Source: Patescibacteria group bacterium
GTDB taxonomy: Bacteria; Patescibacteriota; Microgenomatia; UBA8517
Direction of reading: 5' to 3'
DNA: 64,000 nt
Assembly (NCBI GenBank): GCA_041742135.1
Contig: JBGSJG010000008.1
Coordinates: 232,964 to 296,963, forward strand
Position numbers and translations under genes: made by a program. Shown here piece after piece: positions 43,774 to 64,000 of the stretch; positions within the stretch are counted from its first letter, which is position 1, and the number at the start of each line of letters is the position of its first letter. The notes beneath the pieces were generated by a model. The model was not told where the DNA came from, searched no databases, and saw only the letters and a program-made list of their open reading frames with translations.

Positions 43774-43780
43774 TGTAATT

Positions 43781-46638: not shown

Positions 46639-46650
46639 AATATTTTTGTT

Positions 46651-47508: not shown

Positions 47509-47584
47509 TTTTAAGCTTTCTAAATTTCGTTAAATTGATCATATTATACACAAAGTAGGTCAATATTTCTCTGGAGATTCTCTA

Positions 47585-48214
47585 TCATTCTTTGAGCAAC
47601 TCCGTATATCTTTTTATTTGAAATACCTCTGCATATTCACAACCCTCATGCAATAGACCCCTATACTGATTCAGTCCCTTGATTGCCAGATCTATACGTG
47701 ATTTATCCAATTGAGATTGATAAAGAGACAATGCTTTCATTTTTTGATTTATTTTCGATGAAATGTCTTCAGTTAAGTTGTATGTTTGCAATGGTTTGTG
47801 AACCTCGTACAACACTAATCCTTTAGCAGGTTTTTTTGTGAGTTGATTATATCTCCAGAATGACTCAATAATTAGCTGATACGCTATCTTGTGTTCATAG
47901 TCAGCATCATCAGCATGATTACAATAAATTAAATCAGGAGTACTAATTTTAAAAATATCTATTATTTTCTTAATATTTTGTGCAGACACTTTAAAAGATT
48001 GGTCTTTCAATCGAAGAAAATAATGCTCTTTGACTCCCATGAATTTGCAGACTTCTTTCGCCTCTTTTTCCCTCAAATCTTCAATACTATCTCCTGAAGA
48101 TAAATATAAGACATCCACTTCATGATGTGCTTCCACAGCCTTGGCCATTAAACCACCAGCACCAATAATTTCATCATCGGGGTGTGGAGCTACAACTAAT
48201 ATTTTCTTTTTCAT
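47585..48214 (-). CDS. PIG-L/LmbE-family N-acetyl-sugar deacetylase
   Basis: VVAPHPDDEIIGAGG. Confidence 0.75.
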   Translation of the reverse strand: MKKKILVVAPHPDDEIIGAGGLMAKAVEAHHEVDVLYLSSGDSIEDLREKEAKEVCKFMGVKEHYFLRLKDQSFKVSAQNIKKIIDIFKISTPDLIYCNHADDADYEHKIAYQLIIESFWRYNQLTKKPAKGLVLYEVHKPLQTYNLTEDISSKINQKMKALSLYQSQLDKSRIDLAIKGLNQYRGLLHEGCEYAEVFQIKRYTELLKE

Positions 48215-48250
48215 AAAGTATCTTCTTGAACTATAATACCATTAATAACT

Positions 48251-49255
48251 ATGAACCCAAAAGAAACTTTGACCAGAAAAAACCCTGACATTCACCTCCG
48301 ACAAGCTGTTCAGAGATGGGATCTTGCTGGGATAATAAGCATGGACGATTATACCAGTCGTGGGGCTCATGGTGGAGTTGTGAAAATAACTACAACTAAA
48401 GGTGATTTTGCTTTAAAAAGATATGATTCTTATACTAGTGAGAAAATTCCATTTTTTAATAATGTCTATAATTGTTTGTTAAAAAATGGTTTTGATGATT
48501 TTCCAGTGCCAGTCAGTACTAAAAAAAATGAACCTTATTTCAAAGACGAAGCCGACAATGCTTGGGAACTTGTTCCTTGGGTAGATGGTACTAGCCTGTC
48601 AAGTCTCGAGCTAAATAATAAATTAGTTAAGGGTGCGTCGACATTCATTGCAAATTTTCATCTGTATTGTAGAGATTTTAATATCGATTCATCGAGCGTT
48701 CTCGATAAAAGTCACTCTACGGTATGGATACCCGAAATGTTACATCGAAGAGAATTGATTGGGCGGTCGCTGGAAGGTGGGTTTGCTAACCAAGAAGTTG
48801 AACATCTTGTCACAGAACTTTTTCAACTTTCCGCTAAAATTATTCCACGGCTGACCTCAATTAGGTTCTCAAAACTTGAAGAAGGTCTACCATCTTGTGT
48901 CATACACGCAGATCTATCATTCGATCACATCTTAGCAGACGAAAGTGGTTACAAGTTAATCGACTTCGATAGAATGAGAATAGGAAAAAGAATAGTCGAT
49001 ATAGAACGGTTAATATCTGAGAGCTCAAAAAAAACTCCACAACTTGGTGAAACCGCACTAGCATCTTATCAAGAGATTTCAAGTCTAACTGCTAACGAAC
49101 AGAGTGTGTTGCCTATTTTCATTGCTTACCAACGAACGAGGCGAGCTTATTGGAGAGCTGAGAGGTTAGTCAATAATCCTGAACTATTTCAAAATGAAGG
49201 CGAAGAGTTTCGTAAGGAGTTATTGTCGGCAGTGTCTCATCTTAGTAATTTTTAA
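48251..49255 (+). CDS. APH/CotS-type small-molecule kinase
   Basis: VIHADLSFDHIL...LIDFD. Confidence 0.5.
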   Translation: MNPKETLTRKNPDIHLRQAVQRWDLAGIISMDDYTSRGAHGGVVKITTTKGDFALKRYDSYTSEKIPFFNNVYNCLLKNGFDDFPVPVSTKKNEPYFKDEADNAWELVPWVDGTSLSSLELNNKLVKGASTFIANFHLYCRDFNIDSSSVLDKSHSTVWIPEMLHRRELIGRSLEGGFANQEVEHLVTELFQLSAKIIPRLTSIRFSKLEEGLPSCVIHADLSFDHILADESGYKLIDFDRMRIGKRIVDIERLISESSKKTPQLGETALASYQEISSLTANEQSVLPIFIAYQRTRRAYWRAERLVNNPELFQNEGEEFRKELLSAVSHLSNF

Positions 49256-49264
49256 GGGCAAAAT

Positions 49265-49963
49265 ATGAAAGAAAGATCATTTACAAAACAATTTCGGGGA
49301 GATAGAGCAGAAAAGCGTTATCAAAACGAACTTGATGCGCACCTGCTTTTTCCAGACCTAATACCAGCAGTTCTCAGTACCGATGAAGAATTATTAGAAA
49401 TTACTTTTGAACACATTTCAGGCGATTCTACTGAATGCAGTAATGAATTTTTGTTTGCTGTTGGGACAGCATTGGCAAACATTCACAAAAGCCACCAAAG
49501 TTTTTCAGAATGGAAAAATTCAAATTTAATCGAAAGATATAAATCATTTAGTGATAAGTATCTTGTAGAGTTAGTTGACCATTTACTTGATGATGTGCCA
49601 AAACCACTATACGGTTTTACCCATGGAGATTATCGGCGTAGAAATATCCTTGCATTGCCCGATACGATTAAAGTTGTTGATTGGGAATTTTTTGGGATCA
49701 ATTTTGTATACTGGGATCTAGCAATTTTTGCAGGCGATTATGTGCACCAAAAATTTCACAATCTCCAAACTAATAGCCTTAAACCATTCTGGGAAGGATA
49801 TCTTGCTGGCAATGAGCTTACAAAGGAAGAGTTAATACTTTGTAAAACACTAGGGGGTCTTGACATTATTGCTGACCCATCTTGCTACAACCAGGAGAAA
49901 AGCCCCCAGAACCAAAAGAATTATTTCTTGACTTTAATGAGACAGAAAAACAGTATTTATTAG
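49265..49963 (+). CDS. short APH-type kinase-like protein
   Basis: GFTHGDYRRRNIL ... VVDWEF. Confidence 0.4.
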   Translation: MKERSFTKQFRGDRAEKRYQNELDAHLLFPDLIPAVLSTDEELLEITFEHISGDSTECSNEFLFAVGTALANIHKSHQSFSEWKNSNLIERYKSFSDKYLVELVDHLLDDVPKPLYGFTHGDYRRRNILALPDTIKVVDWEFFGINFVYWDLAIFAGDYVHQKFHNLQTNSLKPFWEGYLAGNELTKEELILCKTLGGLDIIADPSCYNQEKSPQNQKNYFLTLMRQKNSIY

Positions 49964-49998
49964 ATCATGAAAATTACATGTAGCTGATAGTTTTAAAT

Positions 49999-50916
49999 AT
50001 GAAATATAAAATTCTTGTAACAGGCGGGGCTGGATTTATTGGATCACACATTGTTGATGCTTATATTGAAGCTGGACATCATGTAGCAGTAGTCGATGAT
50101 TTTTCAACAGGGTTTCATAGAAACTTAAATCCTCAGGCCACTATTTTTGAAGGTAATATCCAAGACAAATGGTTTATTAGAGAAGTTTTTAACCACTTTG
50201 TTCCAAACATTGTAAATCACCATGCCGCACAAATTTCTGTTGAAAAGTCTGTAGAAAATCCTTTATTAGATAATAAAATTAATGTTGAGGGTACTCTAAA
50301 TCTTTTAGAGGCAAGTAAACAAAAAATTCAAAAGTTCATCTTTGCCTCATCTGGTGGGGCTGTATATGGGAATCAATCTGGTGCATCTGATGAAGAAACT
50401 TGCCCCAATCCAATTTCTCCATATGGAATTTCTAAGCTAGCTTGTGAACAATATCTTAATTTCTATTCCGAGCAGTATTCACTAAAAATTCAAATCCTAA
50501 GATATTCTAATGTGTATGGTGACAGGCAAAATGCGCTTGGTGAGGCAGGGGTAATTACTAAGTTTTTTCATCAGTTTCAAAATGGCGTTCAACCGATCAT
50601 ATATGGAGATGGCAACAATACAAGAGACTTTGTTTTTGTTAGAGATGTTGCAAGTGCAAATTTGTTAGCTTTGCACAATGACAAAGAAGGCGTCTGGAAT
50701 ATTAGTTCAAATACTGAAACGAGTGTTAATGATTTATATGACCAAATATCAATCTTAGTAAACACTAGATTGCCAAAGACTCATGGACCTGCTCGAAGCA
50801 GCGAAGTAAAAAGTAGCAAACTTGATAATACTAAAGCAATTAATGAACTGGGCTGGACTCCAAAATTTAACCTTCATTCAGGACTAAAAACATTACTAGA
50901 TTCAGAAAACATTTAA
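49999..50916 (+). CDS. NAD-dependent sugar epimerase/dehydratase (SDR)
   Basis: VTGGAGFIGSH Rossmann motif; the YxxxK region is present. Confidence 0.85.
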   Translation: MKYKILVTGGAGFIGSHIVDAYIEAGHHVAVVDDFSTGFHRNLNPQATIFEGNIQDKWFIREVFNHFVPNIVNHHAAQISVEKSVENPLLDNKINVEGTLNLLEASKQKIQKFIFASSGGAVYGNQSGASDEETCPNPISPYGISKLACEQYLNFYSEQYSLKIQILRYSNVYGDRQNALGEAGVITKFFHQFQNGVQPIIYGDGNNTRDFVFVRDVASANLLALHNDKEGVWNISSNTETSVNDLYDQISILVNTRLPKTHGPARSSEVKSSKLDNTKAINELGWTPKFNLHSGLKTLLDSENI

Positions 50917-50929
50917 ACCAAGTTAATAA

Positions 50930-52837
50930 CTAACTAGTGAGCATCTTTCCCAAACCCGGGATTTTCCCCACTAGCTCCCGAATTTTGTTTTTACTCGCTA
51001 GAGGTGGCTCATTGGCCGTATTTGCAGACAAAGTGCCATTAGGAGGCGACACAGGGGCGACCACTGCCTCTTTTGGAGGCACTTCTTCAGCTTCTTCCTG
51101 CTTTTCCGGTATTTCTGGACCAAGCAGGATGTTAACGTATTGATCTAAGTCTAGTTCTTCCAGAACCATTTTCTGCAGAGCTCGCTTTCGGATAAGCCAT
51201 CGTTTTACATCTGCTGGGCTGTTTGGGTCTGGTTTATCCTGTGCGATAAACTTGTCATATAAAAGTAAGATCTGATTTAGTCGTGCTTGTTTGTCAGGCG
51301 GAATCACTGGTTCGACTTCAACAATTGCATCTACGTGGACTTTTTTATCCTCTGATTTGAATTCCTTGAAGTTCACACTGTTACCTACGATACGGTACAG
51401 TTTGTCCTCACTTAAGAACTCACGATTCAGTTGAATAAGGATATTGGCTACTGTAGTCAAGGCATTGGAAATGTTCTGAGCGTTTATGCTTAATCGCAAA
51501 TTACTTTGACCCAACAGCATTGCTACTTTGCCAAGTGGCTCGCTCGATGACCTTGGGAGACCCTGCAGATACTCGCCTAACGCTAAAGTTCTGGAGATCT
51601 CGTCCCTGAGGAGTTTGTCTTCATTAAGTCCCATTAAGCTGATTTCTGGCGGCCGTTCGATCACCACATCATCCATTTTCCTGAGTTCCCACACGGCACC
51701 TGGCGAGAAGATGATGTCATTTTTAGTTATTCCAGTGTCTTTACGAATTTTGACCACTGGATCAAGCATCAATATCACATCATCCATTCGTTGGTTGCGA
51801 AGATCAGCAATCTCCATAATTGTGCTTTCAACTGGCTCAACATGACCTGTTGCCCAGAACTCCCACAGCAGTGACATATCGGGGAGGTCTACATAAATAT
51901 GCCCATTGTTAATATCCAGGTAAGGATTTTCGTCATCTCTGATTACTACTTCACCGTTGGCTATCACTACCAATTCGTCTTCTTCGTAGTCCCAGCACTC
52001 CCACAACTCCAATTGCTTTTCCTGATCGTTTTTAACAGGTAGGACTTTTTGTTCTCCCGTATCAGCTTTTTTTAGATCACCGTCAATCTGAGACATTTTC
52101 TTTGTATTGATCTCATAGCGCTCTTTTTTCCAATCTTCCACATTCTTAGGTTCACAATATTCAATATTTTTATAAATGTTGTTTTCACCTCGGTTTTCTT
52201 CCTCCTTGGTGATTTTTTCTTTTGTCTTAACTATCCTATGTATCAGCCAAGGGCAACCTTCCTGAAGGTCTTCTGTTTCCGGAGCTGGTAGAAAATCCCA
52301 CAAGTCACAGAGAATCATTGTTGGATCGTCGTACAACGTTTTGAACGTGCCGTCTGACTTTTTCCTGCTTTTAACTTTCCATGCTAACTTAACTATTCCA
52401 TTTCCATACAACACAGAAGATTCGATCCAATTGGGGAGTTTCTTGGCTAACTCAATAATATCGAAGTCGTAATTCACCAGGTCATCCCAGGAGGATAAGG
52501 ATTTGGACTCTACATCACGTTTGTCTCTTGGGATCACTCGGGTTTTGCGCTTAGCTGTTGCTAGACGTGAGACAACCGTTTTGACGATCTCAAAAGCAAT
52601 CGGCGGCATTAGCCGAGTGTTGTAGGCGTAATTTTGTTTATGTTGATAGGCCCGATATAGTCTGTACATTCTGAGCCACTTGGCTTGGTACGGCTCGCGA
52701 AACTCTTTTGCACGCTTAAATCTGGCCTTCCATTTTTTGAGAAGTTCTTCGTCACGTTCAGAAGGTGTGTATCTTTTCTGAGGTGTGATCTTTGTTTCTT
52801 TAACTTTAGGCTTTGACATAGTGGTGTTGACCAACAA
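50930..52837 (-). CDS. phage portal (head-tail connector) protein, T7 gp8-like; TTG start, or ATG at 52819
   Basis: The segment RPPEISLMGLNEDKL parallels T7 gp8 RPEDISFLQLEKQ; the N-terminal basic/aromatic region and size (635 aa) fit a portal. Confidence 0.55.
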   Translation of the reverse strand: MLVNTTMSKPKVKETKITPQKRYTPSERDEELLKKWKARFKRAKEFREPYQAKWLRMYRLYRAYQHKQNYAYNTRLMPPIAFEIVKTVVSRLATAKRKTRVIPRDKRDVESKSLSSWDDLVNYDFDIIELAKKLPNWIESSVLYGNGIVKLAWKVKSRKKSDGTFKTLYDDPTMILCDLWDFLPAPETEDLQEGCPWLIHRIVKTKEKITKEEENRGENNIYKNIEYCEPKNVEDWKKERYEINTKKMSQIDGDLKKADTGEQKVLPVKNDQEKQLELWECWDYEEDELVVIANGEVVIRDDENPYLDINNGHIYVDLPDMSLLWEFWATGHVEPVESTIMEIADLRNQRMDDVILMLDPVVKIRKDTGITKNDIIFSPGAVWELRKMDDVVIERPPEISLMGLNEDKLLRDEISRTLALGEYLQGLPRSSSEPLGKVAMLLGQSNLRLSINAQNISNALTTVANILIQLNREFLSEDKLYRIVGNSVNFKEFKSEDKKVHVDAIVEVEPVIPPDKQARLNQILLLYDKFIAQDKPDPNSPADVKRWLIRKRALQKMVLEELDLDQYVNILLGPEIPEKQEEAEEVPPKEAVVAPVSPPNGTLSANTANEPPLASKNKIRELVGKIPGLGKMLTS

Positions 52838-52989: not shown

Positions 52990-55401
52990 TCAAAACATTC
53001 GTCTGGTTTTTGTTTCGATCTTCACTTTCCAAACTTCCATAATAAATTTATTTACGTCTTCTTCTGTGATCAGAGGTAACAAATCATCATCTGCACGATC
53101 CATAATCGGTATGTGTCCGTAACGACTTCTTTTCTTTTCTACAAGTCCATGCACTTCCATCATTAGTTGATCATAACTTGGCGAAATTAATTTCCCTTTT
53201 TCTGGCGGACCTTCTGGGTACCATTTTTTTCGATACGCATCTTCAAAAGTTTTTATATAAATTTTCAATTCGTCTACAATCTCTTTCTTACCTAATTTCA
53301 GCGCCAGCACTCCAATGTAGCAAGCTCTTTCCATTATTCTTGGTTCTGTAAAGCCATAACTATCACCTTCGCCTAAAGTCAACATTTTAATAGCAAAGTT
53401 GTAGAGAATTTTTATTGCATCTTTGGCAGTTTGATCTAAATCTTGCTGAATGGCTTTTATACCTATTTTTGATACCGCCTCGATTAAAGAGTCAAACGAA
53501 TTGTTATCTTTGATCTTTTTAAGGTCGTGAGTAAACCACTCTGTTTGGAAGATATACCAACCAATTTGTTTTGTTAATTCCTCTTTGTCACCTGCCCATT
53601 TTTCGTTTTTGGTTAAGTCGACCAATAAACAACCCACATCGGAAATAATCTCACCAAAGGTACTGACTAAAATGTGATTAGCTGTTTTCATTTTTTCTGA
53701 AAGGTACCGTAGAGTTGATCTTAACTCTTCTGTAGTAGTAAAGAATGCTTCCTTCCAGTCCTTGATTTCTTCTTCAGTTTTTGCATTCGTGGCTGCTCTA
53801 GCTGTTTGGAAAATCATCGAGGACATTGCTGTGAATGGGTTAGCTAAGTTTGTTTGAATTGAGAAGCTGTTATCAAGGGAACCTGTCACCATAGAAACAT
53901 ATGCATAAAAAATAATATTCCTCAGATGCTCCCATAAAGACCTTAGTTCCATCTCCAAGTTAAAGTATTTTGTCGCTATCAGTTGAGAGAGAATTGAGGT
54001 GTAAGTATTGATTACCTGTCCCAAAACTACGTTATATTTATTTGTTAGGGCACTCATGGCAATTTTGTCGAGCATGTCATAAATTGATATGAACTCGTGG
54101 TGGAGATTCTGTTTTATTACGATTGGGATTATTTCTTCATATGCTAATATTCCTTGGAACAAAGCCTCCTGATGGTTAAATTTAATAGCGCTCTCAAGCA
54201 GTTGGTTTAAGTAGCCTCTACATTGCTCCATTATTGGGCTTTCTACTTTGCGTTTGGTCAGGTAGTTGATCTCGCTGGCTGACTTACATAACTGCACAAA
54301 AATAGAAATTACTCGAGTAACCCCTTCATTGTCATTTTCTCTCATGTAATTCTCACCGACGGCCACCAATCTTTCGAGTGGAGGAGTTAAGAAAGCACGA
54401 GAGTCACTCGTGGTTGCTAAGATGAATCCGGCAGGCAATACAAACGAGGAATCTTTTCTAGTCTGAAAATACTTTTGAAGGATATTGGTTATTACCTGCA
54501 GAACACCCAGAGCCGAGCTTCGTTCATTGGAGGCCACCAACTTTCCATGGTAATCAAAAAGATAGTTGAGTCTACTGTTGATGTACGCAAACTCTGGTTT
54601 TAAGTATTGGAACGAGGTTGCCAAGGCTTCCTCTTTGGTAACCTTTTTATCAAGCTTTGGCTGTCTAATCAGAACGTCAGCAATTTCCTGAGCTCGTTTG
54701 TGAGTGAAATCTAACTTGGCGAAGGCTTGCTTAGAGGCAATTTTTAATACATTGTTTGGGTCAAGCCGGTCCCTGACCCTTTGATAGAAGACAAATGTTA
54801 GGTAAAAAACAAAGCCAATTAAGAATAACGCCAATTGGAAAGAGAACACTGTAAGTCCCAGATTGAGTTTGCCAAACAGTAGTGCAAAAGAGAAGACCGC
54901 TAAGGAACAACTGCTAATGAGAAAAAATATCACATCGTGCAACCAATCTCTTGCAGCAGTCTCATAAAAGCCCACCGGAATACGCTCTGCGGCATTGCCC
55001 ATTAGAAGGATACTAAGCGAAAAGATAATCGCCAAGATTCCACCGATCATGGCCGCTACTGCTGTGAAGAAGGTGATGGCATCACTCCTAGCAAATGCCG
55101 GATCAATAAACTGCCCGAGTAAAAAAATAGAGCCGATCAGAAGTAAGAAATAAATCAGAGAACCAATAAGCATTTTCTTGGCATTAAGAAAATGGAAGAC
55201 TCGAAATCTGAAGTACGTTTTTACCGTTAATCTGCCTAGGTAAAAATAAAAGATAGCAGTTTTTTTAAGTAAGGAAACCTTTTTAATTACCTTTCTACGC
55301 CAAGAGAGAAGGATTTTCTTTGCAGTTTGAAGAGTTTCCGGGCTGAAGTATTCTTTCAACCCCTTTTTTCGTTTTTTAGTCTTTTTATTATTTGCACCCA
55401 T
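52990..55401 (-). CDS. 803-aa protein: N-terminal 4-5 TM segment plus large alpha-helical cytoplasmic domain. It starts 21 nt after res and may be co-operonic with the Type III R-M.
   Basis: Hydropathy; no catalytic motif recognised. Confidence 0.4.
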   Translation of the reverse strand: MGANNKKTKKRKKGLKEYFSPETLQTAKKILLSWRRKVIKKVSLLKKTAIFYFYLGRLTVKTYFRFRVFHFLNAKKMLIGSLIYFLLLIGSIFLLGQFIDPAFARSDAITFFTAVAAMIGGILAIIFSLSILLMGNAAERIPVGFYETAARDWLHDVIFFLISSCSLAVFSFALLFGKLNLGLTVFSFQLALFLIGFVFYLTFVFYQRVRDRLDPNNVLKIASKQAFAKLDFTHKRAQEIADVLIRQPKLDKKVTKEEALATSFQYLKPEFAYINSRLNYLFDYHGKLVASNERSSALGVLQVITNILQKYFQTRKDSSFVLPAGFILATTSDSRAFLTPPLERLVAVGENYMRENDNEGVTRVISIFVQLCKSASEINYLTKRKVESPIMEQCRGYLNQLLESAIKFNHQEALFQGILAYEEIIPIVIKQNLHHEFISIYDMLDKIAMSALTNKYNVVLGQVINTYTSILSQLIATKYFNLEMELRSLWEHLRNIIFYAYVSMVTGSLDNSFSIQTNLANPFTAMSSMIFQTARAATNAKTEEEIKDWKEAFFTTTEELRSTLRYLSEKMKTANHILVSTFGEIISDVGCLLVDLTKNEKWAGDKEELTKQIGWYIFQTEWFTHDLKKIKDNNSFDSLIEAVSKIGIKAIQQDLDQTAKDAIKILYNFAIKMLTLGEGDSYGFTEPRIMERACYIGVLALKLGKKEIVDELKIYIKTFEDAYRKKWYPEGPPEKGKLISPSYDQLMMEVHGLVEKKRSRYGHIPIMDRADDDLLPLITEEDVNKFIMEVWKVKIETKTRRMF

Positions 55402-55422: not shown

Positions 55423-57729
55423 TCAAAATTTGAATGCGCTGCTCAAAATTGCATTAAAGCTGTTCTCGCTGTTAACAGCTGTGTGGGGCAGAAGTTTGTA
55501 TATCCATTTTTTCTTCGTAGCGTTTGTAGCGATTTTGCACCATTCTTCTGCCTGCTTTGCTTTTTCCAATACCTCTGGATCTCTTTTGTCGAGCTTACTT
55601 TTATCTTTAACCTCAACTAAATAATAAGCGTCTTTATGTTCAACAATAAAATCTGGATTGTAGTTACCATAAATGTATCTGATCGGCAGTTGTCCATTTC
55701 TTAGTCTCAACCAGCTCACTACCGATTTATCTCTATCGAGTGAGTCTGCCAATAATTTCTCTTGAGCAGAATCAAAGTCATAGGCAGGATATACGCTTTT
55801 CTTATACCCCTCAATAATATTCCCTCTGGATTCAGACTCATTGACCTCATCTTTATTCAAAGGCACAGCAGATTTTTTAACCGTTTTGAAATATGGCTCA
55901 AACTCTAATTCCTCGTCGAGAACTCTATATTCAATTTTAGTCTGCTCTTGAATTTTTTCTCTTAGTTGAGGCAACACATCGTTTAAAATGGTTTGTTCGT
56001 GAAGTTTGACCAATTTTGACAATTCCTTACCTTTTGCTGGCAGTTGATCAAGATAATGTTTAATTATTTTTTGCAGTGTAGCTTTAAAAGAGACATCAAA
56101 TTCGCTCATCTCCAGAATTATTAATCTGACCATTCTGTTAATTGGATCAATTCCTTCTTTAATTTCAATATCGCCAGCTTCTTCTGTTTCCTGAGAGACA
56201 ATATCGGCTTTAACAAGTTTGGGGGTAATCTTCTTAAGTTCTTCTAGTCGCAGTTCTATAGGAAAGAACTCCAGTTTATTACTAGATTTTACCTTTGCCT
56301 CCACCACGGGGATACTAATCAAAAGTTTTTTGTCTTCAACAGGCTTAATTTCAACAGTTTTAAGCCCCTCTTTCTTTTCAGCTTTCTTAACTCCTAATCC
56401 TTCAGCGACTTCATGAGCGACCGAAACTACTCTAGAAAAGTTGTCATGCGAAATAATGTCCAAAGAGTCTAACTCCTCAACGCCTGTAAGCTCACCAAAA
56501 GGTAATCTCAAACCCCTACCAATTGTCTGTTCAATTAAAGTCTTGCTTATTGATGCTCTAAAGGGAATTATCGTATAAACGTTTTTAACATCCCAGCCTT
56601 CTTTGAGTTTGTCTACATGAATAACAATTTCATTTTTATTGACAGGGTAGGGTTCTTCCAAACGAAGAAGTTGGTTAATGGAATCAACCTCACTTTCGCT
56701 TGTCACAAGCAAGGTTTTGTTTTTATAATAACCTTCAAAAAAATCATCACTCTCAATCAAACTTTTTACATCTTTTGCATGCTGAATACTTTTTGTTGTA
56801 AGCAGGGTAATTGGGAGAACAAATGGTAGCTTGTTATTTTTACAATACTCCTCAATCAAGGCCTTCTTTTCTTGATGTCTTCTAATACCATCCTCAAGTT
56901 TGACCATCTCAAGATCGCCTTTGTAGGTATAATCATCGCTTCTGGCAATAACATAGGGCACCTTGATATACCCTCCTTTTGCGCCATTACCATTGCCTAG
57001 GCTCTCCAAAGCCTTCTTAGAGTCGTTTATGGCGTCTCCAAGCGTGTATGAGTAGACAATATTCTCACTGATTGGGGTAGCAGTAAATTCTAATCCGAGT
57101 TCTGGTTTTAGGTGGTTGATTGCTTTTATAGACTTGAGGCCACGATACCGATGACTCTCGTCCATCATTATCACAAGATCTTTTTGCTGGAGAAGTTCAG
57201 CAAAGCTGGATCCCAATGTCTCTTGAAACTTGTGAAATTTAAACTCAACGTCAGTTCGCTCGTTGAATATTTTTTGAATGTTAAACACATATATATTTAG
57301 CGATTCAAAAAGTTGATTGGCAAAATTAGAATACTCATAGTTTTCGCCGGTTATTAGATTGAACAATGGAAAATCGGTTAAACCTTCGAAAACATATTTT
57401 TTGCTTCCCGGGGTAAAGTTTTCAATCGTTTTTGTGTAGATTGTTTCACCCGGGGTAAGTATAAAAAAGTCCTTCAGACCTTTCGTTTCATATAGGTAAG
57501 CAATCATTGCTGCCATGAGCCTGGTTTTACCCACACCTGTAGCCAGAGCGAAGGTAAAGGAAGGAAACTCAGTATCAAACTTAATGTTTCCCACCAATTT
57601 GACTTCAATATCTTCTATGCTTTCCTTACCCAATTTAACATTCGAAAGTAATGTGTCTAGCTTTATCAGTGAAAGCTCTTGTGGTTTTCTTAAACTTAAT
57701 TCTTTAGTGGTTTTATCGATTATCTTCAT
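55423..57729 (-). CDS. res: Type III restriction enzyme Res subunit (SF2 helicase plus C-terminal PD-(D/E)xK)
   Basis: ATGVGKTRL (motif I), IMMDESHRY (DExH), C-terminal NPDFIVEH...LVEVKDK. Overlaps mod by 4 nt. Confidence 0.75.
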   Translation of the reverse strand: MKIIDKTTKELSLRKPQELSLIKLDTLLSNVKLGKESIEDIEVKLVGNIKFDTEFPSFTFALATGVGKTRLMAAMIAYLYETKGLKDFFILTPGETIYTKTIENFTPGSKKYVFEGLTDFPLFNLITGENYEYSNFANQLFESLNIYVFNIQKIFNERTDVEFKFHKFQETLGSSFAELLQQKDLVIMMDESHRYRGLKSIKAINHLKPELGLEFTATPISENIVYSYTLGDAINDSKKALESLGNGNGAKGGYIKVPYVIARSDDYTYKGDLEMVKLEDGIRRHQEKKALIEEYCKNNKLPFVLPITLLTTKSIQHAKDVKSLIESDDFFEGYYKNKTLLVTSESEVDSINQLLRLEEPYPVNKNEIVIHVDKLKEGWDVKNVYTIIPFRASISKTLIEQTIGRGLRLPFGELTGVEELDSLDIISHDNFSRVVSVAHEVAEGLGVKKAEKKEGLKTVEIKPVEDKKLLISIPVVEAKVKSSNKLEFFPIELRLEELKKITPKLVKADIVSQETEEAGDIEIKEGIDPINRMVRLIILEMSEFDVSFKATLQKIIKHYLDQLPAKGKELSKLVKLHEQTILNDVLPQLREKIQEQTKIEYRVLDEELEFEPYFKTVKKSAVPLNKDEVNESESRGNIIEGYKKSVYPAYDFDSAQEKLLADSLDRDKSVVSWLRLRNGQLPIRYIYGNYNPDFIVEHKDAYYLVEVKDKSKLDKRDPEVLEKAKQAEEWCKIATNATKKKWIYKLLPHTAVNSENSFNAILSSAFKF

Positions 57730-59423
57730 ACTTTAAATTTCCTTAATAATACATCTGGAACTCTTTTAACTTCTATATTATCTGGTAATTTTAAATTTTT
57801 GGAAATAGTTTTTGCATAGATGACAATATAGTCAGCCTCGACGCCCACTTCATTTTCTAGAACTCTCACATAGTCCTGAGTAACGTATTGCTCAGTAACA
57901 TGAGCTATAGTTCTCCCAGCAATTCCGTGTAGCCCATTGTCAGGGTGTAACAATTTAAATCCTTCAACTTTTAGTACTGCTCTAATCAAAGGACCATTGA
58001 ACATCTTGGGGTTGAGAACTGTTAGTTTAAGGTCATTATCTTGAACGAATAAGCTCTCGCCAAGTTCAAAATACTTGAACCCACTGCCACCGTTCCAACG
58101 TGCTGTTTTAGTGATTCCGCTTTTATCTTTACCAAGGACAATTTTTTCTAATCGAGGAGTAATATGTGTCTCTGCGTGTCCACCTATTTCTACCATGACC
58201 CATTTTCTGCCCATTTTATGTGCGACTGCACCAGTTGTTCCAGATCCCGCAAAGCTATCCAATACCCAATCACCCTTTTCTGTCGCTAGGTCAATGATGC
58301 GTCTTAGGAGGGTTTCTGGTTTTTTACCTCTCCTGAAGTCTACCGATCCTTCGTTGGCCAAATCAGCTTTGGGAATCTCAGCATGACCCCAGAAATCAGT
58401 CATTTTGTTTTCTTTGACAATACCTTCTTCAGTTTTAGAAGCAGAATCTTTTAACCAAGCAAATAGCTCTTTATTTAAGTAGTAATTTGTAACTTCTTGA
58501 CCCTTATATCTGCCTCTACTCGGGATATAATCTACCGAATACAAATTTTTATCCATTCTCGAAATTAATTCGTGTTGAAATGAATTTTCTTTTTGAGGGT
58601 TGGTTGTTCTGAAGATGTTCTCGAAATTATTCTTATACTGTTCTCTAATTTCTTCTTCTCTGTCAGCAAAACTCCTTAGAGAAATGGATTCAATATCATA
58701 ATCTGAGTGTTTATAAATTTTCACCATTTCGCCGTTGGATTTCGAAGCAAACTCTCCAATTAGTTTTTTAGAACCCTTATTCTTGAGGATATATCGATAT
58801 CGTTGCATCACCTTTTTTTCCAATGGATATCTGCTAAGAGCTTGTGCTAAGTCAATTGAAGCTATATCTTTTGCAAATACCAAAACATACTCATGAGTGT
58901 TTACAAGAAACTTTCCACCCTGACCAATACCAGCACTACCTGATCTTTCATATGCTATCTGTGCCAAGAAGTTTTTTCTACCAAAAACTTCATCTAAAAT
59001 CATTCTGCAGTAATGTACTTCTGTATCGTCTAAGTGAATCCAGATAGTCCCATCTTTTTTAAGTAGTTTATGCAAGAGCGTAAGTCTATCTCGCATCATT
59101 GTCAGCCAGATTGAGTGCTCTAATCCATCATCGTAATGATCGAAGGCTTGTCCTGTGTTAAATGGAGGATCTATATAAACTAGCTTTATCTTGTTTCTAA
59201 AATCTTGAAGTAGTGCTTTGAGAGCAAGCAGGTTATCTCCCTTAACTAACATATTTTCAGAGTTTTTTTCACCAAATGATGATTTTTCAAGGAAAATACG
59301 AGGCTCTGATACTCTCGGATCTTTTTTGTCTACCCAAACGTATGTCTTTTCATTCAAGTCATAAAAGAGACTCTTGTCTTTGTTAAACCAGGTTAGTTCT
59401 AATTTTGTATCGTTTTTAGCCAT
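57726..59423 (-). CDS. mod: Type III R-M Mod subunit (beta-class N6-adenine/N4-cytosine DNA methyltransferase); the ORF is open to 59486 but the internal Met (MAKNDTKLELTWFNKDK) is the likely start
   Basis: VYIDPPFNTG (motif IV) precedes DSFAGSGTTG (motif I). Confidence 0.8.
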   Translation of the reverse strand: MAKNDTKLELTWFNKDKSLFYDLNEKTYVWVDKKDPRVSEPRIFLEKSSFGEKNSENMLVKGDNLLALKALLQDFRNKIKLVYIDPPFNTGQAFDHYDDGLEHSIWLTMMRDRLTLLHKLLKKDGTIWIHLDDTEVHYCRMILDEVFGRKNFLAQIAYERSGSAGIGQGGKFLVNTHEYVLVFAKDIASIDLAQALSRYPLEKKVMQRYRYILKNKGSKKLIGEFASKSNGEMVKIYKHSDYDIESISLRSFADREEEIREQYKNNFENIFRTTNPQKENSFQHELISRMDKNLYSVDYIPSRGRYKGQEVTNYYLNKELFAWLKDSASKTEEGIVKENKMTDFWGHAEIPKADLANEGSVDFRRGKKPETLLRRIIDLATEKGDWVLDSFAGSGTTGAVAHKMGRKWVMVEIGGHAETHITPRLEKIVLGKDKSGITKTARWNGGSGFKYFELGESLFVQDNDLKLTVLNPKMFNGPLIRAVLKVEGFKLLHPDNGLHGIAGRTIAHVTEQYVTQDYVRVLENEVGVEADYIVIYAKTISKNLKLPDNIEVKRVPDVLLRKFKV

Positions 59424-59430
59424 AATTCTT

Positions 59431-60717
59431 TTATCCCTTATTGTAAACGCTGAATTCACTACCGGATAATACAGGAGTTTTGCCAACGTACATTTTCTTC
59501 ATTTTTTTGTCAGTCAGATTAAAAGCGTGACCATTGCCAATTTTATTATTGGCAAGGGAAAGGGGACTTTTACCGAGATTTACTTGATAAGCAATTGTGT
59601 CCATAAAAGCTACCCTGCCAATCAAGTTGCCTTTTAGCACCTCGAATGCTACAAAATAGTGGTTATTGCCTTGCTTTACTTTTTGAGCAACAAAGCTGTT
59701 GTCTCCCACGCTTACAAAATCCTCGGCATTACCCGTGCCTTCTCTTATAAAATTACGAATAGGCTTTAAATTCCCTGAGAAAACATTTGAAAGAACTCCA
59801 CTTTTGTCTGCACAATAAGTAAAATATTCTAGCGCCACCTTCGCCACAAAGCGGGCAGTATTCACATCTACATCTTGAGACGCAATGAAACTCGACTTAA
59901 TTTGTTTTGGCTGCTCGTCATCATTGACTGTTTCCTTGCTTGATCCTGATTTTAACCCCAAATTCTTTAGTGCAGCTTGCACAATTTCAGATGAATCGTC
60001 TCTATCTCCAATCCAGTCTGCCGATTCAGTTCCTTCTCTAAAACTTCTTATCTTATATTGCAGCTTTTTAATTTTATTTTGGGATTTTATATTAGCCACT
60101 TCCTCTGCGAAGATGAGGGCATGGAGGTTACCTTTTTTTAACAAAAGAATGGGGTCTTTGGTAAAACCGACTTTATCTAATGCACTTTTTACTAATAGCA
60201 ACAGTGGATTGTATTCAATTGTGGTTTCGGGAGAAAAGTGGAATTTTAGGAGGCTTGAATCGTAAAGAATAACTGGACTTTGTTTACCTGTCTTTCTTAT
60301 GAGGAGAAGTCTTGCTATTAAGCCTTCAAAACTTTTTTCTGCAAAGTGTTTTTCAATTGTCTCGCCCAATTTGCTATTACATTGGTCACAAACAACATCC
60401 CCTTGAAAGAATAAATCCGGCTGAAAATTACCCATAAACTGGCTCAAAATGTGAGCCTTTTTCTTGAAAGAGTTTGGTTCTTGGCTACTGCAGTAAATGC
60501 ATTTGGGGGTTTGTCTATTCATATTTATTTTCTTATTGTTCAAGATTGCCTCAATATCTTTCGGATCATAGCGCCTGTCACCACGTTCATTCACTATAAT
60601 TGCTTTCAGCTTGCCTCGTTTATCCCAACGCCTTAACGTTTCCGAATGAACGTTTAGTATTTCGGCCGCCTGCTTGATAGTTAGCAGCTTTGGTAGCTGA
60701 TGTTTTTTCTTCGGCAT
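59431..60717 (-). CDS. HTH (excisionase/MerR-type) plus HNH/Zn-ribbon plus large unknown C-terminal domain protein, 8 nt upstream of mod
   Basis: LTIKQAAEILNVHSETLRRWDKRGKL; CIYCSS...KKAHI...CDQCN. Confidence 0.5.
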   Translation of the reverse strand: MPKKKHQLPKLLTIKQAAEILNVHSETLRRWDKRGKLKAIIVNERGDRRYDPKDIEAILNNKKINMNRQTPKCIYCSSQEPNSFKKKAHILSQFMGNFQPDLFFQGDVVCDQCNSKLGETIEKHFAEKSFEGLIARLLLIRKTGKQSPVILYDSSLLKFHFSPETTIEYNPLLLLVKSALDKVGFTKDPILLLKKGNLHALIFAEEVANIKSQNKIKKLQYKIRSFREGTESADWIGDRDDSSEIVQAALKNLGLKSGSSKETVNDDEQPKQIKSSFIASQDVDVNTARFVAKVALEYFTYCADKSGVLSNVFSGNLKPIRNFIREGTGNAEDFVSVGDNSFVAQKVKQGNNHYFVAFEVLKGNLIGRVAFMDTIAYQVNLGKSPLSLANNKIGNGHAFNLTDKKMKKMYVGKTPVLSGSEFSVYNKG

Positions 60718-60760
60718 ACCTATACAAAATTATACAAAAATAATGACTGAAATGGTATAG
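60701..60760. repeat. copy A of a duplicated promoter/5' cassette (ttcttcggcatacct-atacaaaattatacaaaaataa-tgactgaaatggtata)
   Basis: ~80% identical to 63188-63250. The minus sense contains TATAAT ~12 nt before the ATG of 59431..60717. Confidence 0.6.
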
Positions 60761-60787: not shown

Positions 60788-62209
60788 TCATGTTTGGTTG
60801 ACTGATTTGAGTCTTTTCCATATTTCTACCATTGCTAGCGTATCTAGCCTGCAGTACTTGAGTAAATTCTTTCTAACTTGATCTTTTTGTTCTTCTGAAG
60901 CATTCCCATGCACAACCTCCCACCATCGGGTCATAGCTGTTGCCCCTTCGGCAATTTCCATATCATCGTAACTAAGCTCGGGACATAATACTGGTAAAAC
61001 TTTTTTAATAGAGGCACTGCCATGAAAGCGGTAGTCAACATAAAGACCATTTTTAAAAATATCCATTAGATCGAAAACTCGTCCATTAATACCTTCAATC
61101 TCGTTGCTGTAAACTGGTTGTAGAATGGCTAATTCTTCATTCCGCTTACATTCAAAGTGTTTGTTCCAGACGATGACTGAACCACTATCACCAATAACTT
61201 TCATTAGCGCCTCGGTAAACTGAGGGCTAGGTTCATCGACTTCAGTAGTGATAAATTCGTAGTGGCTTAATTGAGTATCCTCTGGCTTTGCCAATACGTG
61301 TAAGGAGAATTGAAAGACGATATGTTGATAGGGTGTGTAGCTGTCATGAATAGGAATAGCAGGCCCAAATGTTTCATAGTCTAAAAAGTAATGAGGGAAG
61401 GTTAGATTTCCCAACTCTCTACTTATTCCCTCTCGGTCGATTATCGCCTGTTGAGTTTTAATTGAACGTAGTTGAAGTATCTGTTTGGGGTTTAAGTCTT
61501 CCGTTTCATCAATATCTACAAGGTTTGAATAGCCTTTTTCTACCAGTTTTTCGTACTGACCTACTTTCCACCATGACAAGTCATAAATTGGGTACTCTCC
61601 TAGATTTGGGTGGCATAGTTGGAGGCAGGAGCAGTCGTTAGGTTTATAGCAGCGATTTTCTGGTGGATTATCTGCTTTTAGAACTTCTAACGCCTCGGAC
61701 CGCAATTTGAAGACTTCATCCTCAAGCTTAGCGATTACGTTTGCCATGTCTTCAACCAAGAAAAACTTTTGTAAGTCGATTTGACCATTTTTTACATAAT
61801 CTCCATTTACATGCACCAGGTATGTTTTATGAACGGGCAGTGTAGCCTTACCAATAAGATGTTGAAACGTCACATCATACTTATTCTGCTTATCAACTTT
61901 AGTACTGCTCTTTATCTCGTATAAGTCATATGTGTTATTAAGTGTGTCATGTACCAAAGCATCAATTCTGGCTTCGTAGTTGCCGTCAGTCAGGACGTAT
62001 TGAAAATCTATAGTGCTTCCAGGGGGATATTCCGCTTCAACTTTGTTTTGTAGAAATTGTTTGGCAAGACGCTCAACTTCATAACCTTGTTTTGCTATTA
62101 ATTGATCATAAGCCGAGAACTTTTTACTCTCCAGTTTGCCATTGACCTCTGCCCACAAGTGCATTGGTGAATCTAGAAATGTAAGGAAGTTGGATTTAGT
62201 TAGTATCAT
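60788..62209 (-). CDS. DUF2779-type protein: N-terminal RecB/Cas4-like PD-(D/E)xK nuclease plus C-terminal DEDD-like 3'-5' exonuclease fold
   Basis: DLYEIKSSTK; CYKPNDCSCLQLC Cys cluster; YFLDYETF. Confidence 0.55.
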   Translation of the reverse strand: MILTKSNFLTFLDSPMHLWAEVNGKLESKKFSAYDQLIAKQGYEVERLAKQFLQNKVEAEYPPGSTIDFQYVLTDGNYEARIDALVHDTLNNTYDLYEIKSSTKVDKQNKYDVTFQHLIGKATLPVHKTYLVHVNGDYVKNGQIDLQKFFLVEDMANVIAKLEDEVFKLRSEALEVLKADNPPENRCYKPNDCSCLQLCHPNLGEYPIYDLSWWKVGQYEKLVEKGYSNLVDIDETEDLNPKQILQLRSIKTQQAIIDREGISRELGNLTFPHYFLDYETFGPAIPIHDSYTPYQHIVFQFSLHVLAKPEDTQLSHYEFITTEVDEPSPQFTEALMKVIGDSGSVIVWNKHFECKRNEELAILQPVYSNEIEGINGRVFDLMDIFKNGLYVDYRFHGSASIKKVLPVLCPELSYDDMEIAEGATAMTRWWEVVHGNASEEQKDQVRKNLLKYCRLDTLAMVEIWKRLKSVNQT

Positions 62210-62229
62210 TTACTGTTATTGATTACTTT

Positions 62230-62481
62230 TTAGTCATAGGGATCAAGTCCAAAATTCTTTTTAGCTCGTTCCTCATTTGCCTTGTTCACTTCTGCAATTT
62301 CATTTCGGTTTCTTCTTTGGATTTCCTCCTCACTTTCCAGCTCCTCAGGGTAAAAGTTTTGTGGCACGCCGTTTTCCATTCTTACCTGAATTTTTTGTTC
62401 CCCGTCTTCTTCCAACTCTTTAAGAACAACTCCCTTGCCCATAACTTTATGCCTAACAACCATTCCTCTCGTAAAATTCAT
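62230..62481 (-). CDS. small (83 aa) protein, 4-nt overlap with the upstream HNH gene
   Basis: ORF; N-terminal GMVVRHKVMGKGVV is KOW/SH3-like. Confidence 0.35.
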   Translation of the reverse strand: MNFTRGMVVRHKVMGKGVVLKELEEDGEQKIQVRMENGVPQNFYPEELESEEEIQRRNRNEIAEVNKANEERAKKNFGLDPYD

Positions 62482-63167
62482 GAAGACACCTCCTCTCTCT
62501 CTTGAAGTAAAAATTCATTTAACTTACCTACTGCCATTGAGATGGCCACCTGACTTTGCCTATAAGCCTCCAGTAATCTGTTTGTAACCTCAGCAAAGGC
62601 GTTCCCCTCAGCCCTTGTGTTTGCGTACATATTAACAAAGGTATTTACTCTCCCTACTCCAGCATATGCTTTGTTGATCTCGTCTCTTAAACCATCTGGC
62701 AAGAGCAGAAGCGAGCCTTGAGCTATGGATCGGTTGTATTCGTTATCATGGAGTATACATCCTATTTTGTCCTGCCATTGAGAGCCGCTTGTGAACTGTT
62801 TTACAACCAACTCATTGTGCCCTAATTCTAGAGACATACCCTCTAACGGGCCGACATCAACATCCCTTGGGGCGGAAATAAGTGCTTCTGGATGCTTGGA
62901 GCAAGTCTCCAGCCACTGTTTCTTATGTGCAAGTAATTCTATTTTAGTGAACTTTCTTCCTCTTGGATGAGCATCGTTGTAATGATTTACCTCAGCGTGG
63001 CACTCAAAACATAGTGGTATGGCATTCTCAATATCGTCACTTCCACCATCAGCCTTATGTTCAACGTGATGAAGTTCCATTTTAACGCCACAAAATCTGT
63101 GACACACGCAGCATCTCCTGTGGCAATGAGCTAGTAGTTTTGAAACTTTATTTTTATCAAAAGCCAT
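62478..63167 (-). CDS. HNH endonuclease-domain protein with ~150-aa unknown C-terminal domain
   Basis: CHRRCCVCHRFCGVKMELHHVEHKADGGSDDIENAIPLCFECH. Confidence 0.6.
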   Translation of the reverse strand: MAFDKNKVSKLLAHCHRRCCVCHRFCGVKMELHHVEHKADGGSDDIENAIPLCFECHAEVNHYNDAHPRGRKFTKIELLAHKKQWLETCSKHPEALISAPRDVDVGPLEGMSLELGHNELVVKQFTSGSQWQDKIGCILHDNEYNRSIAQGSLLLLPDGLRDEINKAYAGVGRVNTFVNMYANTRAEGNAFAEVTNRLLEAYRQSQVAISMAVGKLNEFLLQEREEVSS

Positions 63168-63187
63168 ATTATTTATTAGTTGCCCAT

Positions 63188-63250
63188 TAGTTCTTCGGCA
63201 TACCTCTATTTAATTATACAAAAATAAAGCCTAAATTGGTATACTTGCAG
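63188..63250. repeat. copy B of the same cassette, in the divergent intergenic region. On the minus strand it carries an ATG CCG AAG AAC TAA remnant of the MPKK start.
   Basis: Direct alignment with copy A. Confidence 0.6.
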
Positions 63251-63257
63251 CACAACC

Positions 63258-64000
63258 ATGAGTGCAAAAAAAACGAATAACCATTTACCATCGCATAGTG
63301 ACAACGACTTTACAGATAAGGAGTCAGTAAGTCTTATTGAAAATATTTTAGCTCGCCACAAACGAGTAATGCCGAAGCTGTATTCGAGCGACAAATGGCC
63401 TAATATTGATGGTCATATTGAAGTCCAAGATATTAGTAATGTATTAATGGGGCGTTCATACGTGCAAGTAAAAACTTTTCCTGCCAACCATAATTTGAAA
63501 TTTGCATGCCCTGTATCTTTTCTCACAAGTTGTGAGCTAGACCCTTGTTTTTTGTTTGGTGTTGATAATCAAAATGGGAGGGTTTATTGGCTTTATTTCG
63601 ATGCTCAGGTTATAAAAGAAATTGATTTCGAAAACAATACATCCACAAAAACAATTGAATTTATTCAATCACAATACTTCGATAAGGATAAGGTTGATTA
63701 TGTTGAGGAGTGGGAAAAAATCATCAGAGATAACCAGCAAAAATTTAAGCAGTATAACGAGCTAAAAGAATCGTACGAGCTTATTCTCAGTAGTTCCAAT
63801 AGAGCCATAGGGAAAACTGATAAAAATTTTTCTAAAATTCATTTATTTCTTGATGAGTTGAACAGCGGACTCGATCACCAGTTTCGAATAGTAAAAGATA
63901 TTTTTTATCCACGAACTTGGAAAATAGGACTTGCGTACTATGACTATGAAGACACAAAGGTTGCCTACACTCCGTTTCCCATCCCAATTGATCAGAATGA
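63258..64000 (+). CDS. hypothetical protein, 3'-truncated by the window end; possible PD-(D/E)xK-like N-terminal region
   Basis: Manual translation is open from the ATG at 63258 to the window end (247 codons): MSAKKTNNHLPSH...WPNIDGHIEVQD... Confidence 0.35.
   Translation, partial: MSAKKTNNHLPSHSDNDFTDKESVSLIENILARHKRVMPKLYSSDKWPNIDGHIEVQDISNVLMGRSYVQVKTFPANHNLKFACPVSFLTSCELDPCFLFGVDNQNGRVYWLYFDAQVIKEIDFENNTSTKTIEFIQSQYFDKDKVDYVEEWEKIIRDNQQKFKQYNELKESYELILSSSNRAIGKTDKNFSKIHLFLDELNSGLDHQFRIVKDIFYPRTWKIGLAYYDYEDTKVAYTPFPIPIDQN

Follow-up and report, generated by a model that had tools for sequence, protein, structure and literature searches.

The DNA considered here (the window) is a stretch of 64,000 nucleotides from a Patescibacteria group bacterium (contig JBGSJG010000008.1 of assembly GCA_041742135.1, positions 232,964 to 296,963). 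Near one end it encodes three closely spaced minus-strand genes: an HNH endonuclease of 229 aa (62478-63167), a protein of 83 aa without an assigned family (62230-62481) and a DUF2779 protein of 473 aa (60788-62209). The open reading frames (ORFs) of the first and third have Pfam matches (PF01844 and PF11074, respectively). An earlier note on this DNA described the three genes as a tightly packed operon that looked like a defence or maintenance module beside a restriction-modification (R-M) system. The ORFs were recovered with identical boundaries. The HNH and small genes overlap by 4 nt (ATGA within TCTTCATGAATT), and a 20-nt gap (AAAGTAATCAATAACAGTAA, 62210-62229) separates the small gene from the DUF2779 gene, as the note had said. 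Its domain calls are correct, as is the island setting, with mobile elements and a Type III R-M system directly downstream. The interpretation as one module did not survive comparison with other genomes. Gene content, missing co-occurrence, homology breakpoints and a duplicated repeat were observed directly, and we consider it probable that the apparent operon is an evolutionary junction of two unrelated modules within a decayed prophage or mobile island of what is probably a Patescibacteria (Candidate Phyla Radiation, CPR) genome.

Co-occurrence of the genes, an analysis that the earlier note had proposed, was evaluated in 86 DUF2779 loci (80 from a scan of one genome per GTDB species, plus the closer relatives L092-L097) and in about 90 HNH loci, including 80 from a metagenome scan. 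No homologue of the HNH or small protein was detected by tblastn within 8-10 kb of DUF2779 at any of the 86 loci, and no member of the DUF2779 cluster occurred at any of the ~90 HNH loci. DUF2779 was also never the next gene in loci retrieved via homologues of the small protein. The trio is confined to this genome and to near-identical Logan contigs (L001, L098). The three genes are not conserved neighbours at all; the pattern that the note had named as evidence against a defence role, conserved housekeeping neighbours in all related genomes, was not observed.

A dedicated three-nuclease defence or maintenance system, possibly working with the adjacent R-M genes, would be notable if true. The tight packing on one strand, the lack of a terminator-like site between the genes and the placement in an island that also includes Type III R-M genes and another (HNH_5) nuclease all favour it. 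The HNH_5 domain belongs to an HTH_17/MerR + HNH_5 fusion gene between DUF2779 and the methyltransferase gene (Mod), a nuclease module overlooked by the earlier note. We regard such a system as highly improbable, given that the trio recurs at none of the loci sampled, that the downstream block is complete in the nearest DUF2779 relative (86% identical), which lacks the HNH pair, that a DNA-level junction falls within a few bases of the small-gene stop codon and that PADLOC returned no match. The co-occurrence data largely refute it. A scan with defence-system hidden Markov models (PADLOC-DB v2), also proposed in the note, matched no system among the cassette and DUF2779 genes and identified the neighbouring Mod and Res genes as Type III R-M. 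DUF2779 and the 83-aa protein had no PADLOC match, and the HNH protein had weak partial matches only (DpdF, 7.8e-5; mREase_IV, 6e-4), so the note's remark that the combination is no named system stands. Because the three genes fail to co-occur and a recombination junction lies at the small-gene stop codon, we conclude that a single system of three genes is not supported. The evidence points to a strain-specific juxtaposition, and the case cautions against inferring systems from tight spacing alone.

The HNH and small genes, by comparison, form a conserved unit. The pair was found at 28 loci with differing flanks, in many cases with the 4-nt overlap, and at every locus looked up via the small protein its homologue directly follows an HNH gene (~228 aa, 4-nt overlap). 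Wherever the contig extends far enough, the small gene is present at all loci with an HNH protein at least 62% identical. At more distant HNH loci (at most 53% identity, same HNH length) the small gene is absent and there is no conserved neighbour or partner. A gene for a 60-aa protein of the helix-turn-helix (HTH) family HTH_17 comes next after the pair in 13 clustered loci and in more loci by tblastn, and was found in the closest relatives. The ATGA overlap suggests that the HNH and small genes are probably translationally coupled.

A 53-nt direct repeat, here termed P, occurs twice on the minus strand of the window with 85% identity between copies. Copy 1 (63191-63243) serves as leader or promoter for the HNH cassette; copy 2 (60707-60759) spans the start codon of the HTH_17 gene and the promoter-like sequence ahead of it. 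The repeat includes a -10-like TTGTATAAT followed by GGTATGCCGAAGAA, which is the start codon plus MPK(N*), the first codons of the HTH gene. A 31-nt core of P is present exactly twice in the window, where none is expected by chance. P usually lies ahead of the HNH and small-gene pair, its core having been identified upstream of HNH in 10 other loci, and it stands directly before the HTH_17 gene in L092, a locus of the closest relative; the motif is absent from IMG/VR. At loci with P upstream of HNH, the HNH, small and 60-aa HTH_17 genes are in tandem with gaps of 4-5 nt. Within P lies an imperfect palindrome (GTATGCCG-N10-CGaCATAC), conserved in 12 loci, with 83% of cells paired compared to 18-47% in slid controls (pairs counted on our own structure). 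The HTH_17 protein may use this palindrome as an operator. The distribution fits a family of related elements with "empty" (P-HTH_17) and "filled" (P-HNH-small-HTH_17) arrangements, in which the cargo after HTH_17 is variable. An RNA hairpin in the HNH leader was also considered and rejected: RNAalifold predicts none, and covariation is non-significant, as 55 of the 500 shuffles scored as high or higher.

The closest relative of the window DUF2779 (P0002, 86% identical, on contigs L092/L093) lacks the HNH pair. The gene order there is DUF2779, a 64-aa HTH_17 gene, a pP_pnuc_1 nuclease, Type III Mod, Res, an 816-aa protein, portal and epimerase, and the chromosomal epimerase after the portal is common to L092/L093 and the window. 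Amino acid identity between the two loci is 86% for DUF2779, 89% for HTH_17, 55% for Mod, 92% for Res, 71% for the large protein and 89% for the portal. In L092, two divergent genes lie upstream of DUF2779. They are preceded by further genes, including one for a sigma factor, and beyond these by an intact gene for the large terminase subunit (TerL, 518 aa, L092:1019-2575, phrog_675 4e-90), 7.4 kb upstream of DUF2779.

These loci delimit the exchanged segment. Homology among HNH loci begins ~80 nt upstream of HNH (63246), and in the window it runs to ~62224-62270, ending within a few bases of the small-gene stop codon. Homology to L092 resumes at ~62222, ~13-20 nt before the DUF2779 start codon. 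We place the recombination junction that joins the cassette to the DUF2779 block in the spacer at 62210-62229 (minus strand). Logan contig L098 is 100% identical to window positions 62064-63331 and retains TerL residues 1-313 (L098:269-1321, 93% identical to the L092 TerL) fused at the junction. In the window, comparison with L098 and L092 places a TerL remnant (the 3' side of the breakpoint) and junction sequence upstream of P at 63209-63352 (minus strand), and all three minus-strand frames are closed upstream of the junction. Past 63331 the two sequences diverge completely, L098 continuing into the terminase and the window into a plus-strand ORF (63369-64000). This ORF is still open where the window stops, encodes at least 210 aa and matches no Pfam family.

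Based on the homology breakpoints relative to L092, the HNH loci and L098, a cassette of ~1 kb appears to have replaced ~8 kb between the terminase and DUF2779. The first module (~62224-63246, ~1 kb) would be a self-contained mobile cassette composed of the P leader, the HNH gene and its translationally coupled, acidic Tudor-like partner. In related elements this cassette sits between P and the 60-aa HTH_17 (excisionase/MerR-like) regulator that heads variable cargo. The second module would be a stand-alone DUF2779 gene at the edge of an R-M hotspot in this clade. In this lineage, DUF2779 precedes a P-HTH_17-nuclease-Type III Mod-Res-803-aa block between terminase and portal. Replacement of the segment from terminase codon 313 to ~20 nt upstream of the DUF2779 start would have placed the HNH and small genes directly ahead of DUF2779. 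As no terminator was detected, read-through from P may co-transcribe the trio in this strain, incidentally. Overall, the locus is an ordinary mosaic of a mobile/defence island, in which an HNH cassette, an independent and widespread nuclease gene and Type III R-M genes are combined, and its novelty is modest.

Several points weigh against this reconstruction. The consensus promoter/terminator scan predicted no terminator between the three genes, and co-directional genes with a 4-nt overlap and a 20-nt gap may be co-expressed here; they may even constitute a newly formed functional combination. (The same scan found fewer promoter-like sites than in shuffled sequence, and is uninformative in this respect.) Co-occurrence sampling comprised 80 loci per scan with flanks of 8-10 kb, and the GTDB representatives do not include the window's own species. 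The direction of the event, an insertion with deletion or some other rearrangement, is read from one outgroup locus on two contigs (L092/L093). The left junction differs between the window and L098, either because the population contains two haplotypes or because of a join or error in the assembly. Lastly, the functions suggested for the HNH pair and for DUF2779 are drawn from domains and context alone.

The proximity of the HNH gene to the terminase raises the question of whether it is a phage DNA-packaging HNH (HK97 gp74-like) that, with terminase and portal, makes the cluster a packaging module. In L098 the HNH gene is ~100 nt downstream of the TerL reading frame, the island lies between terminase and portal in L092/L093, and the N-terminal HTH_17 part has weak similarity to a PHROG of small terminase subunits (phrog_57, 6e-5). 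We consider a packaging role very unlikely. The truncation of TerL after residue 313 coincides exactly with the junction, so it was disruption that brought the HNH gene next to it. TerL was detected by tblastn only in L092 and L098 among the fetched loci, with no terminase in other HNH loci, and no capsid or tail genes follow the portal. Furthermore, the HNH family has no matches in 50,697 GenBank phage genomes and none in a pattern scan of IMG/VR; plasmids yielded three partial matches. For DUF2779 only four partial matches were obtained, in Helicobacter prophage records. Neither HNH nor DUF2779 is a typical phage gene.

The HNH protein matches PF01844 with E=1.1e-7 (32.3 bits, cut-off 21.4), and 408 homologues were found. 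Ten residues are invariant among 19 homologues (C15, C19, C20, C22, C26, H34, N48, C53, C56 and H57), comprising the His/Asn/His motif (H34, N48, H57) and cysteine pairs. The AlphaFold2 (AF2) model, with a predicted local distance difference test (pLDDT) score of 81.6, has an HNH core (residues ~15-65) with zinc-binding cysteines and a C-terminal helical bundle. The best structural matches of the core are weak (EcoKMcrA and ScoMcrA HNH domains, E>=0.08), and a profile search against solved structures matched via the core alone. No informative or specific structural match was found for the helical bundle. The public annotation of this protein (209 aa, P0121) probably starts 20 codons too late, affecting window positions 63108-63167, because the first 20 residues are conserved in homologues, including the invariant C15, R17, R18, C19 and C20. 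In several other loci the HNH reading frame is 11 codons longer still, extending to an ATG inside P.

The HNH core with zinc-binding cysteines is shared with McrA- and IscB-type domains, and the best matches of the window protein are group II intron maturase HNH, EcoKMcrA, ScoMcrA and IscB. However, the match spans only ~40-60 residues. The window protein lacks a 5-methylcytosine or phosphorothioate reader domain as well as RuvC or RNA-binding parts, and its HNH domain is N-terminal and followed by the helical bundle. Assignment to RNA-guided IscB (NF040563) was rejected: the score is 33.5 bits compared to a cut-off of 175, and only the HNH segment of the model (186-243) is aligned.

The 83-aa protein is acidic (isoelectric point 5.1) and has no match in Pfam, PADLOC, NCBIfam or PHROGs. 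Its AF2 model (pLDDT 79.8) is a five-stranded Tudor/SH3-like barrel with a long C-terminal helix. The best Foldseek matches are the C-terminal Tudor domains of UvrD/PcrA (7egs_B and 5dma, E ~6e-3, target-normalized TM-scores of 0.72-0.76), followed by Mfd RID and CarD; the E-values are weak. The resemblance to these RNA-polymerase-interacting domains lies in the superposed barrel (TM 0.72-0.76) and in the motif GxxVxHxxxGxGVV. The window protein differs in standing alone, in having an added long acidic helix and in its non-significant sequence similarity (Pfam PcrA_UvrD_tudor E=0.17 only; Foldseek E ~6e-3). A profile search against solved structures gave chance-level matches only. The family is tiny: 13 homologues were detectable in 5.8 billion clusters, and exhaustive profile searching of 1.84 billion proteins recovered 16 representatives. 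One distant homologue sits at a contig start.

The order of a nuclease gene followed by that of a small acidic partner, with a 4-nt overlap, is suggestive of a toxin-immunity (addiction) pair, in which the small protein neutralizes the nuclease and the cassette stabilizes a mobile element. Strict adjacency of the pair in 28 loci, its occurrence on elements with serine recombinases and the conserved leader (imperfect palindrome) that it shares with an HTH regulator gene are consistent with this. We view an addiction pair as a tentative possibility, though a rather doubtful one: HNH homologues of the same length at 53% identity or less have no conserved partner, which argues that the nuclease is not intrinsically antidote-dependent, and the small protein has a fold like those of Tudor domains that bind RNA polymerase or UvrB, not like known nuclease inhibitors. 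It seems somewhat less probable again that the HNH + Tudor-like pair is an undescribed defence or inter-element-competition module of CPR elements, in which the small protein would tether or gate the nuclease via RNA polymerase or UvrB, to which the Tudor domains of UvrD, Mfd and CarD bind, or else that DUF2779 is a generic DNA-end-processing partner kept beside any R-M system; we judge these two options jointly to be unlikely. More generally, and still under the reading of two joined modules, the HNH pair may be carried by elements as a nuclease serving defence, addiction or competition between elements, its small protein acting as regulator or adaptor.

Large serine recombinases were identified within a few kb at several HNH loci (L002, L004, L006/7, L105, L117, L120) and also at DUF2779 loci (L024, L049, L086, L097). 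Homologues of a 336-aa gene from the L092 element were detected in six loci with the HNH cassette. Loci with P-HNH-small-HTH_17 and a serine recombinase look like a compact integrative element of CPR bacteria that is possibly satellite-like. Thus far undescribed, the compact HNH + Tudor-like cassette is recurrent on mobile elements of uncultivated bacteria. At several loci (L004:7318-16246, L002:7318-16246 and L006/L007) P-HNH-small-HTH_17 is 7-8 kb from the large serine recombinase, and genes for Xre-type regulators, HTH_36 and DUF5659 proteins are located between the two.

The cassette is similar in some ways to free-standing HNH homing-endonuclease cassettes. It is ~1 kb in length, encodes a nuclease, has variable flanks and shows presence/absence polymorphism between homologous loci. 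In addition, it is located at the 5' end of a conserved HTH_17 gene, the start region of which is duplicated. Unlike those cassettes, it includes two conserved genes, none of the known DNA-binding modules of homing endonucleases was detected in it, and no precise "empty site" with identical flanks was recovered. The pair is probably a mobile nuclease with a clade-specific adaptor or regulator.

The DUF2779 protein matches PF11074 over residues 274-400 (E=2e-38, 131.9 bits, cut-off 23.3), as do all 18 aligned homologues (48-100% identical to the window protein). At the family level the earlier note's assignment of a RecB/Cas4-like PD-(D/E)xK domain and a DEDD-like exonuclease holds. Scans of the 18 individual homologues gave matches to Cas_Cas4 in four (best 3.5e-6), HSDR_N_2 in six, PDDEXK_1 in one and RNase_H_2 in five; the window protein itself has only a weak SduA_C match (E=0.078). 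Invariant residues are D83, E98-x-K100, C187/C193/C199, D277-x-E279, D380 and Y452-x3-D456. From its sequence, the protein is thus identified as an N-terminal Cas4/RecB-like PD-(D/E)xK domain with a four-cysteine cluster fused to a C-terminal DEDDy RNase H-like 3'-5' exonuclease, and both domains are predicted to be active, with all predicted catalytic residues intact. A profile search against solved structures gave no match at E<=1.

This architecture of Cas4-like and DEDD domains is already published. PF11074 is placed among 3'-5' exonucleases and co-occurs with DUF83 (Cas4) (PMC3985635), and MMSYN1_0389, a fusion of Cas4-like and DEDDh/y domains, is quasi-essential in JCVI-syn3.0 (PMC13621843). 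A transposon mutant of M. bovis is listed beside DnaB, HolA and RecD mutants (PMC7373297). The window protein resembles UU173/MMSYN1_0389 in its full-length PF11074 domain match, two-domain architecture and conserved catalytic residues. It differs in having a cluster of C187, C193, C195 and C199 compared to two cysteines in the Mycoplasma protein, in its length (473 aa compared to ~650 aa for the UU173 model) and in the location of its gene inside a prophage remnant beside Type III R-M. Membership of the UU173 family (NCBIfam NF045869) was rejected, as the score is 49.9 bits against a cut-off of 225 and the C-terminal half alone aligns. In Anaerolineae, DUF2779 occurs in conserved housekeeping synteny with genes for a HAD hydrolase, DinB_2, MgtC and a phosphorylase. 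Given this synteny and the Mycoplasma data, DUF2779 is probably a stand-alone, general DNA-end-processing or repair enzyme. Its context fits a housekeeping role in DNA metabolism for a widespread family that is quasi-essential in a minimal cell.

R-M-type genes are concentrated 3' of DUF2779 in the window's clade, here defined by DUF2779 at least 46% identical to the window protein (loci including L012-L035 and L092-L097). They were identified in 22 of 29 loci in this clade, mostly within 2 kb, compared to 4 of 54 elsewhere. The 3'-flank types are Type I HsdR/HsdS, Eco57I-like Type IIG, Type III Res/Mod, and SNF2 or superfamily 1 (SF1) helicases. The R-M genes differ among genomes in which DUF2779 is 83-97% identical and the upstream genes are the same. 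Because R-M content changes while DUF2779 and upstream synteny stay constant, the pattern suggests that the 3' flank of DUF2779 is an integration hotspot for R-M turnover in one Patescibacteria clade. Defence and R-M hotspots flanked by core genes, also within prophages and satellites, include the P2/P4 hotspots and the defence islands of E. coli. As in such hotspots, a conserved flanking gene (here DUF2779) adjoins fast-changing R-M content, and as in prophage and satellite hotspots the island lies between phage terminase and portal genes. The differences are the Patescibacteria host, the DUF2779 anchor and the prophage, which is a remnant without capsid or tail genes in reach. The hotspot could help to locate new defence genes in CPR genomes.

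The same association could reflect a functional link between DUF2779 and the R-M systems beside it in Patescibacteria, with DUF2779 serving, for example, as an accessory exonuclease acting on restriction fragments. Cas4-like and DEDDy domains would suit DNA-end processing, the R-M-type genes lie within ~0-2 kb 3' of DUF2779 in the 22 clade loci, and they are co-directional with it in the window and L092. Nevertheless, the partners are unrelated in type (Type I, IIG and III, and SF1/SNF2 helicases) and mostly on the opposite strand (convergent), though co-directional in the window, L092/L093, L035 and L094. They also change among DUF2779 proteins that are 83-97% identical with constant upstream synteny, and DUF2779 is free of R-M genes in 50 of 54 more distant loci and quasi-essential in a minimal Mycoplasma (PMC13621843). 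Such coupling is unlikely, and we favour the hotspot interpretation.

Downstream of DUF2779, the window encodes the 428-aa HTH_17/MerR + HNH_5 fusion protein (59431-60717, minus strand; Pfam MerR_1 6.7e-11, HTH_17 1.6e-10, HNH_5 3.7e-7). An N-terminal, excisionase-like HTH_17/MerR domain is followed by HNH_5 and then by ~300 aa without an assigned family. The N-terminal 56-59 aa are 76-89% identical to the HTH_17 genes (60-64 aa) in L092/L093 and at least 13 HNH loci. The part of the gene encoding the C-terminal portion has no DNA homology to L092, where the corresponding segment (L092:11496-12415) has the separate 64-aa HTH_17 gene and a pP_pnuc_1 gene. An exchange of the nuclease behind the HTH domain thus seems to have taken place ahead of an otherwise conserved Type III R-M system.

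That system consists of Mod (57726-59486, minus strand; PADLOC MTase_III 1.7e-123, Pfam N6_N4_Mtase 1.1e-43) and Res (55423-57729, minus strand; PADLOC REase_III 6.6e-90, Pfam ResIII and RE_endonuc), which are in tandem with a 4-nt overlap, as expected for Type III R-M. We read the low identity of Mod to its L092 counterpart (55%, compared to 92% for Res) as a putative swap of the specificity domain. Next is a gene for an 803-aa protein with hydrophobic N-terminal segments (52990-55401, minus strand) that has no match in Pfam, PADLOC, NCBIfam or PHROGs. Its counterpart in L092/L093 (816 aa, 71% identical) also directly follows Res, and the protein may be an accessory component of the R-M block.

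The phage portal gene (50930-52837, minus strand; Pfam SU10_portal 4.8e-9, 35.6 bits, cut-off 30; phrog_332 1.4e-16; phrog_1216 2.2e-7) is 89% identical at the protein level to that of L093, and lies at the far boundary of the prophage remnant in which the island is embedded. Neither capsid nor tail genes were found in reach of the portal. The island lies in a prophage remnant, as indicated by the portal, the terminase remnant and the absence of capsid and tail genes in reach. A conserved portal without a terminase is an odd pairing. Beyond the portal, positions 42281-50916 of the window encode a QueC-like PP-loop enzyme, a radical SAM protein, a carbamoyltransferase and a PIG-L deacetylase. 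Also present there are genes for two APH-type kinases, a family 2 glycosyltransferase and an NAD-dependent epimerase. This cluster looks like a pathway for sugar or nucleoside modification that is unrelated to the trio.

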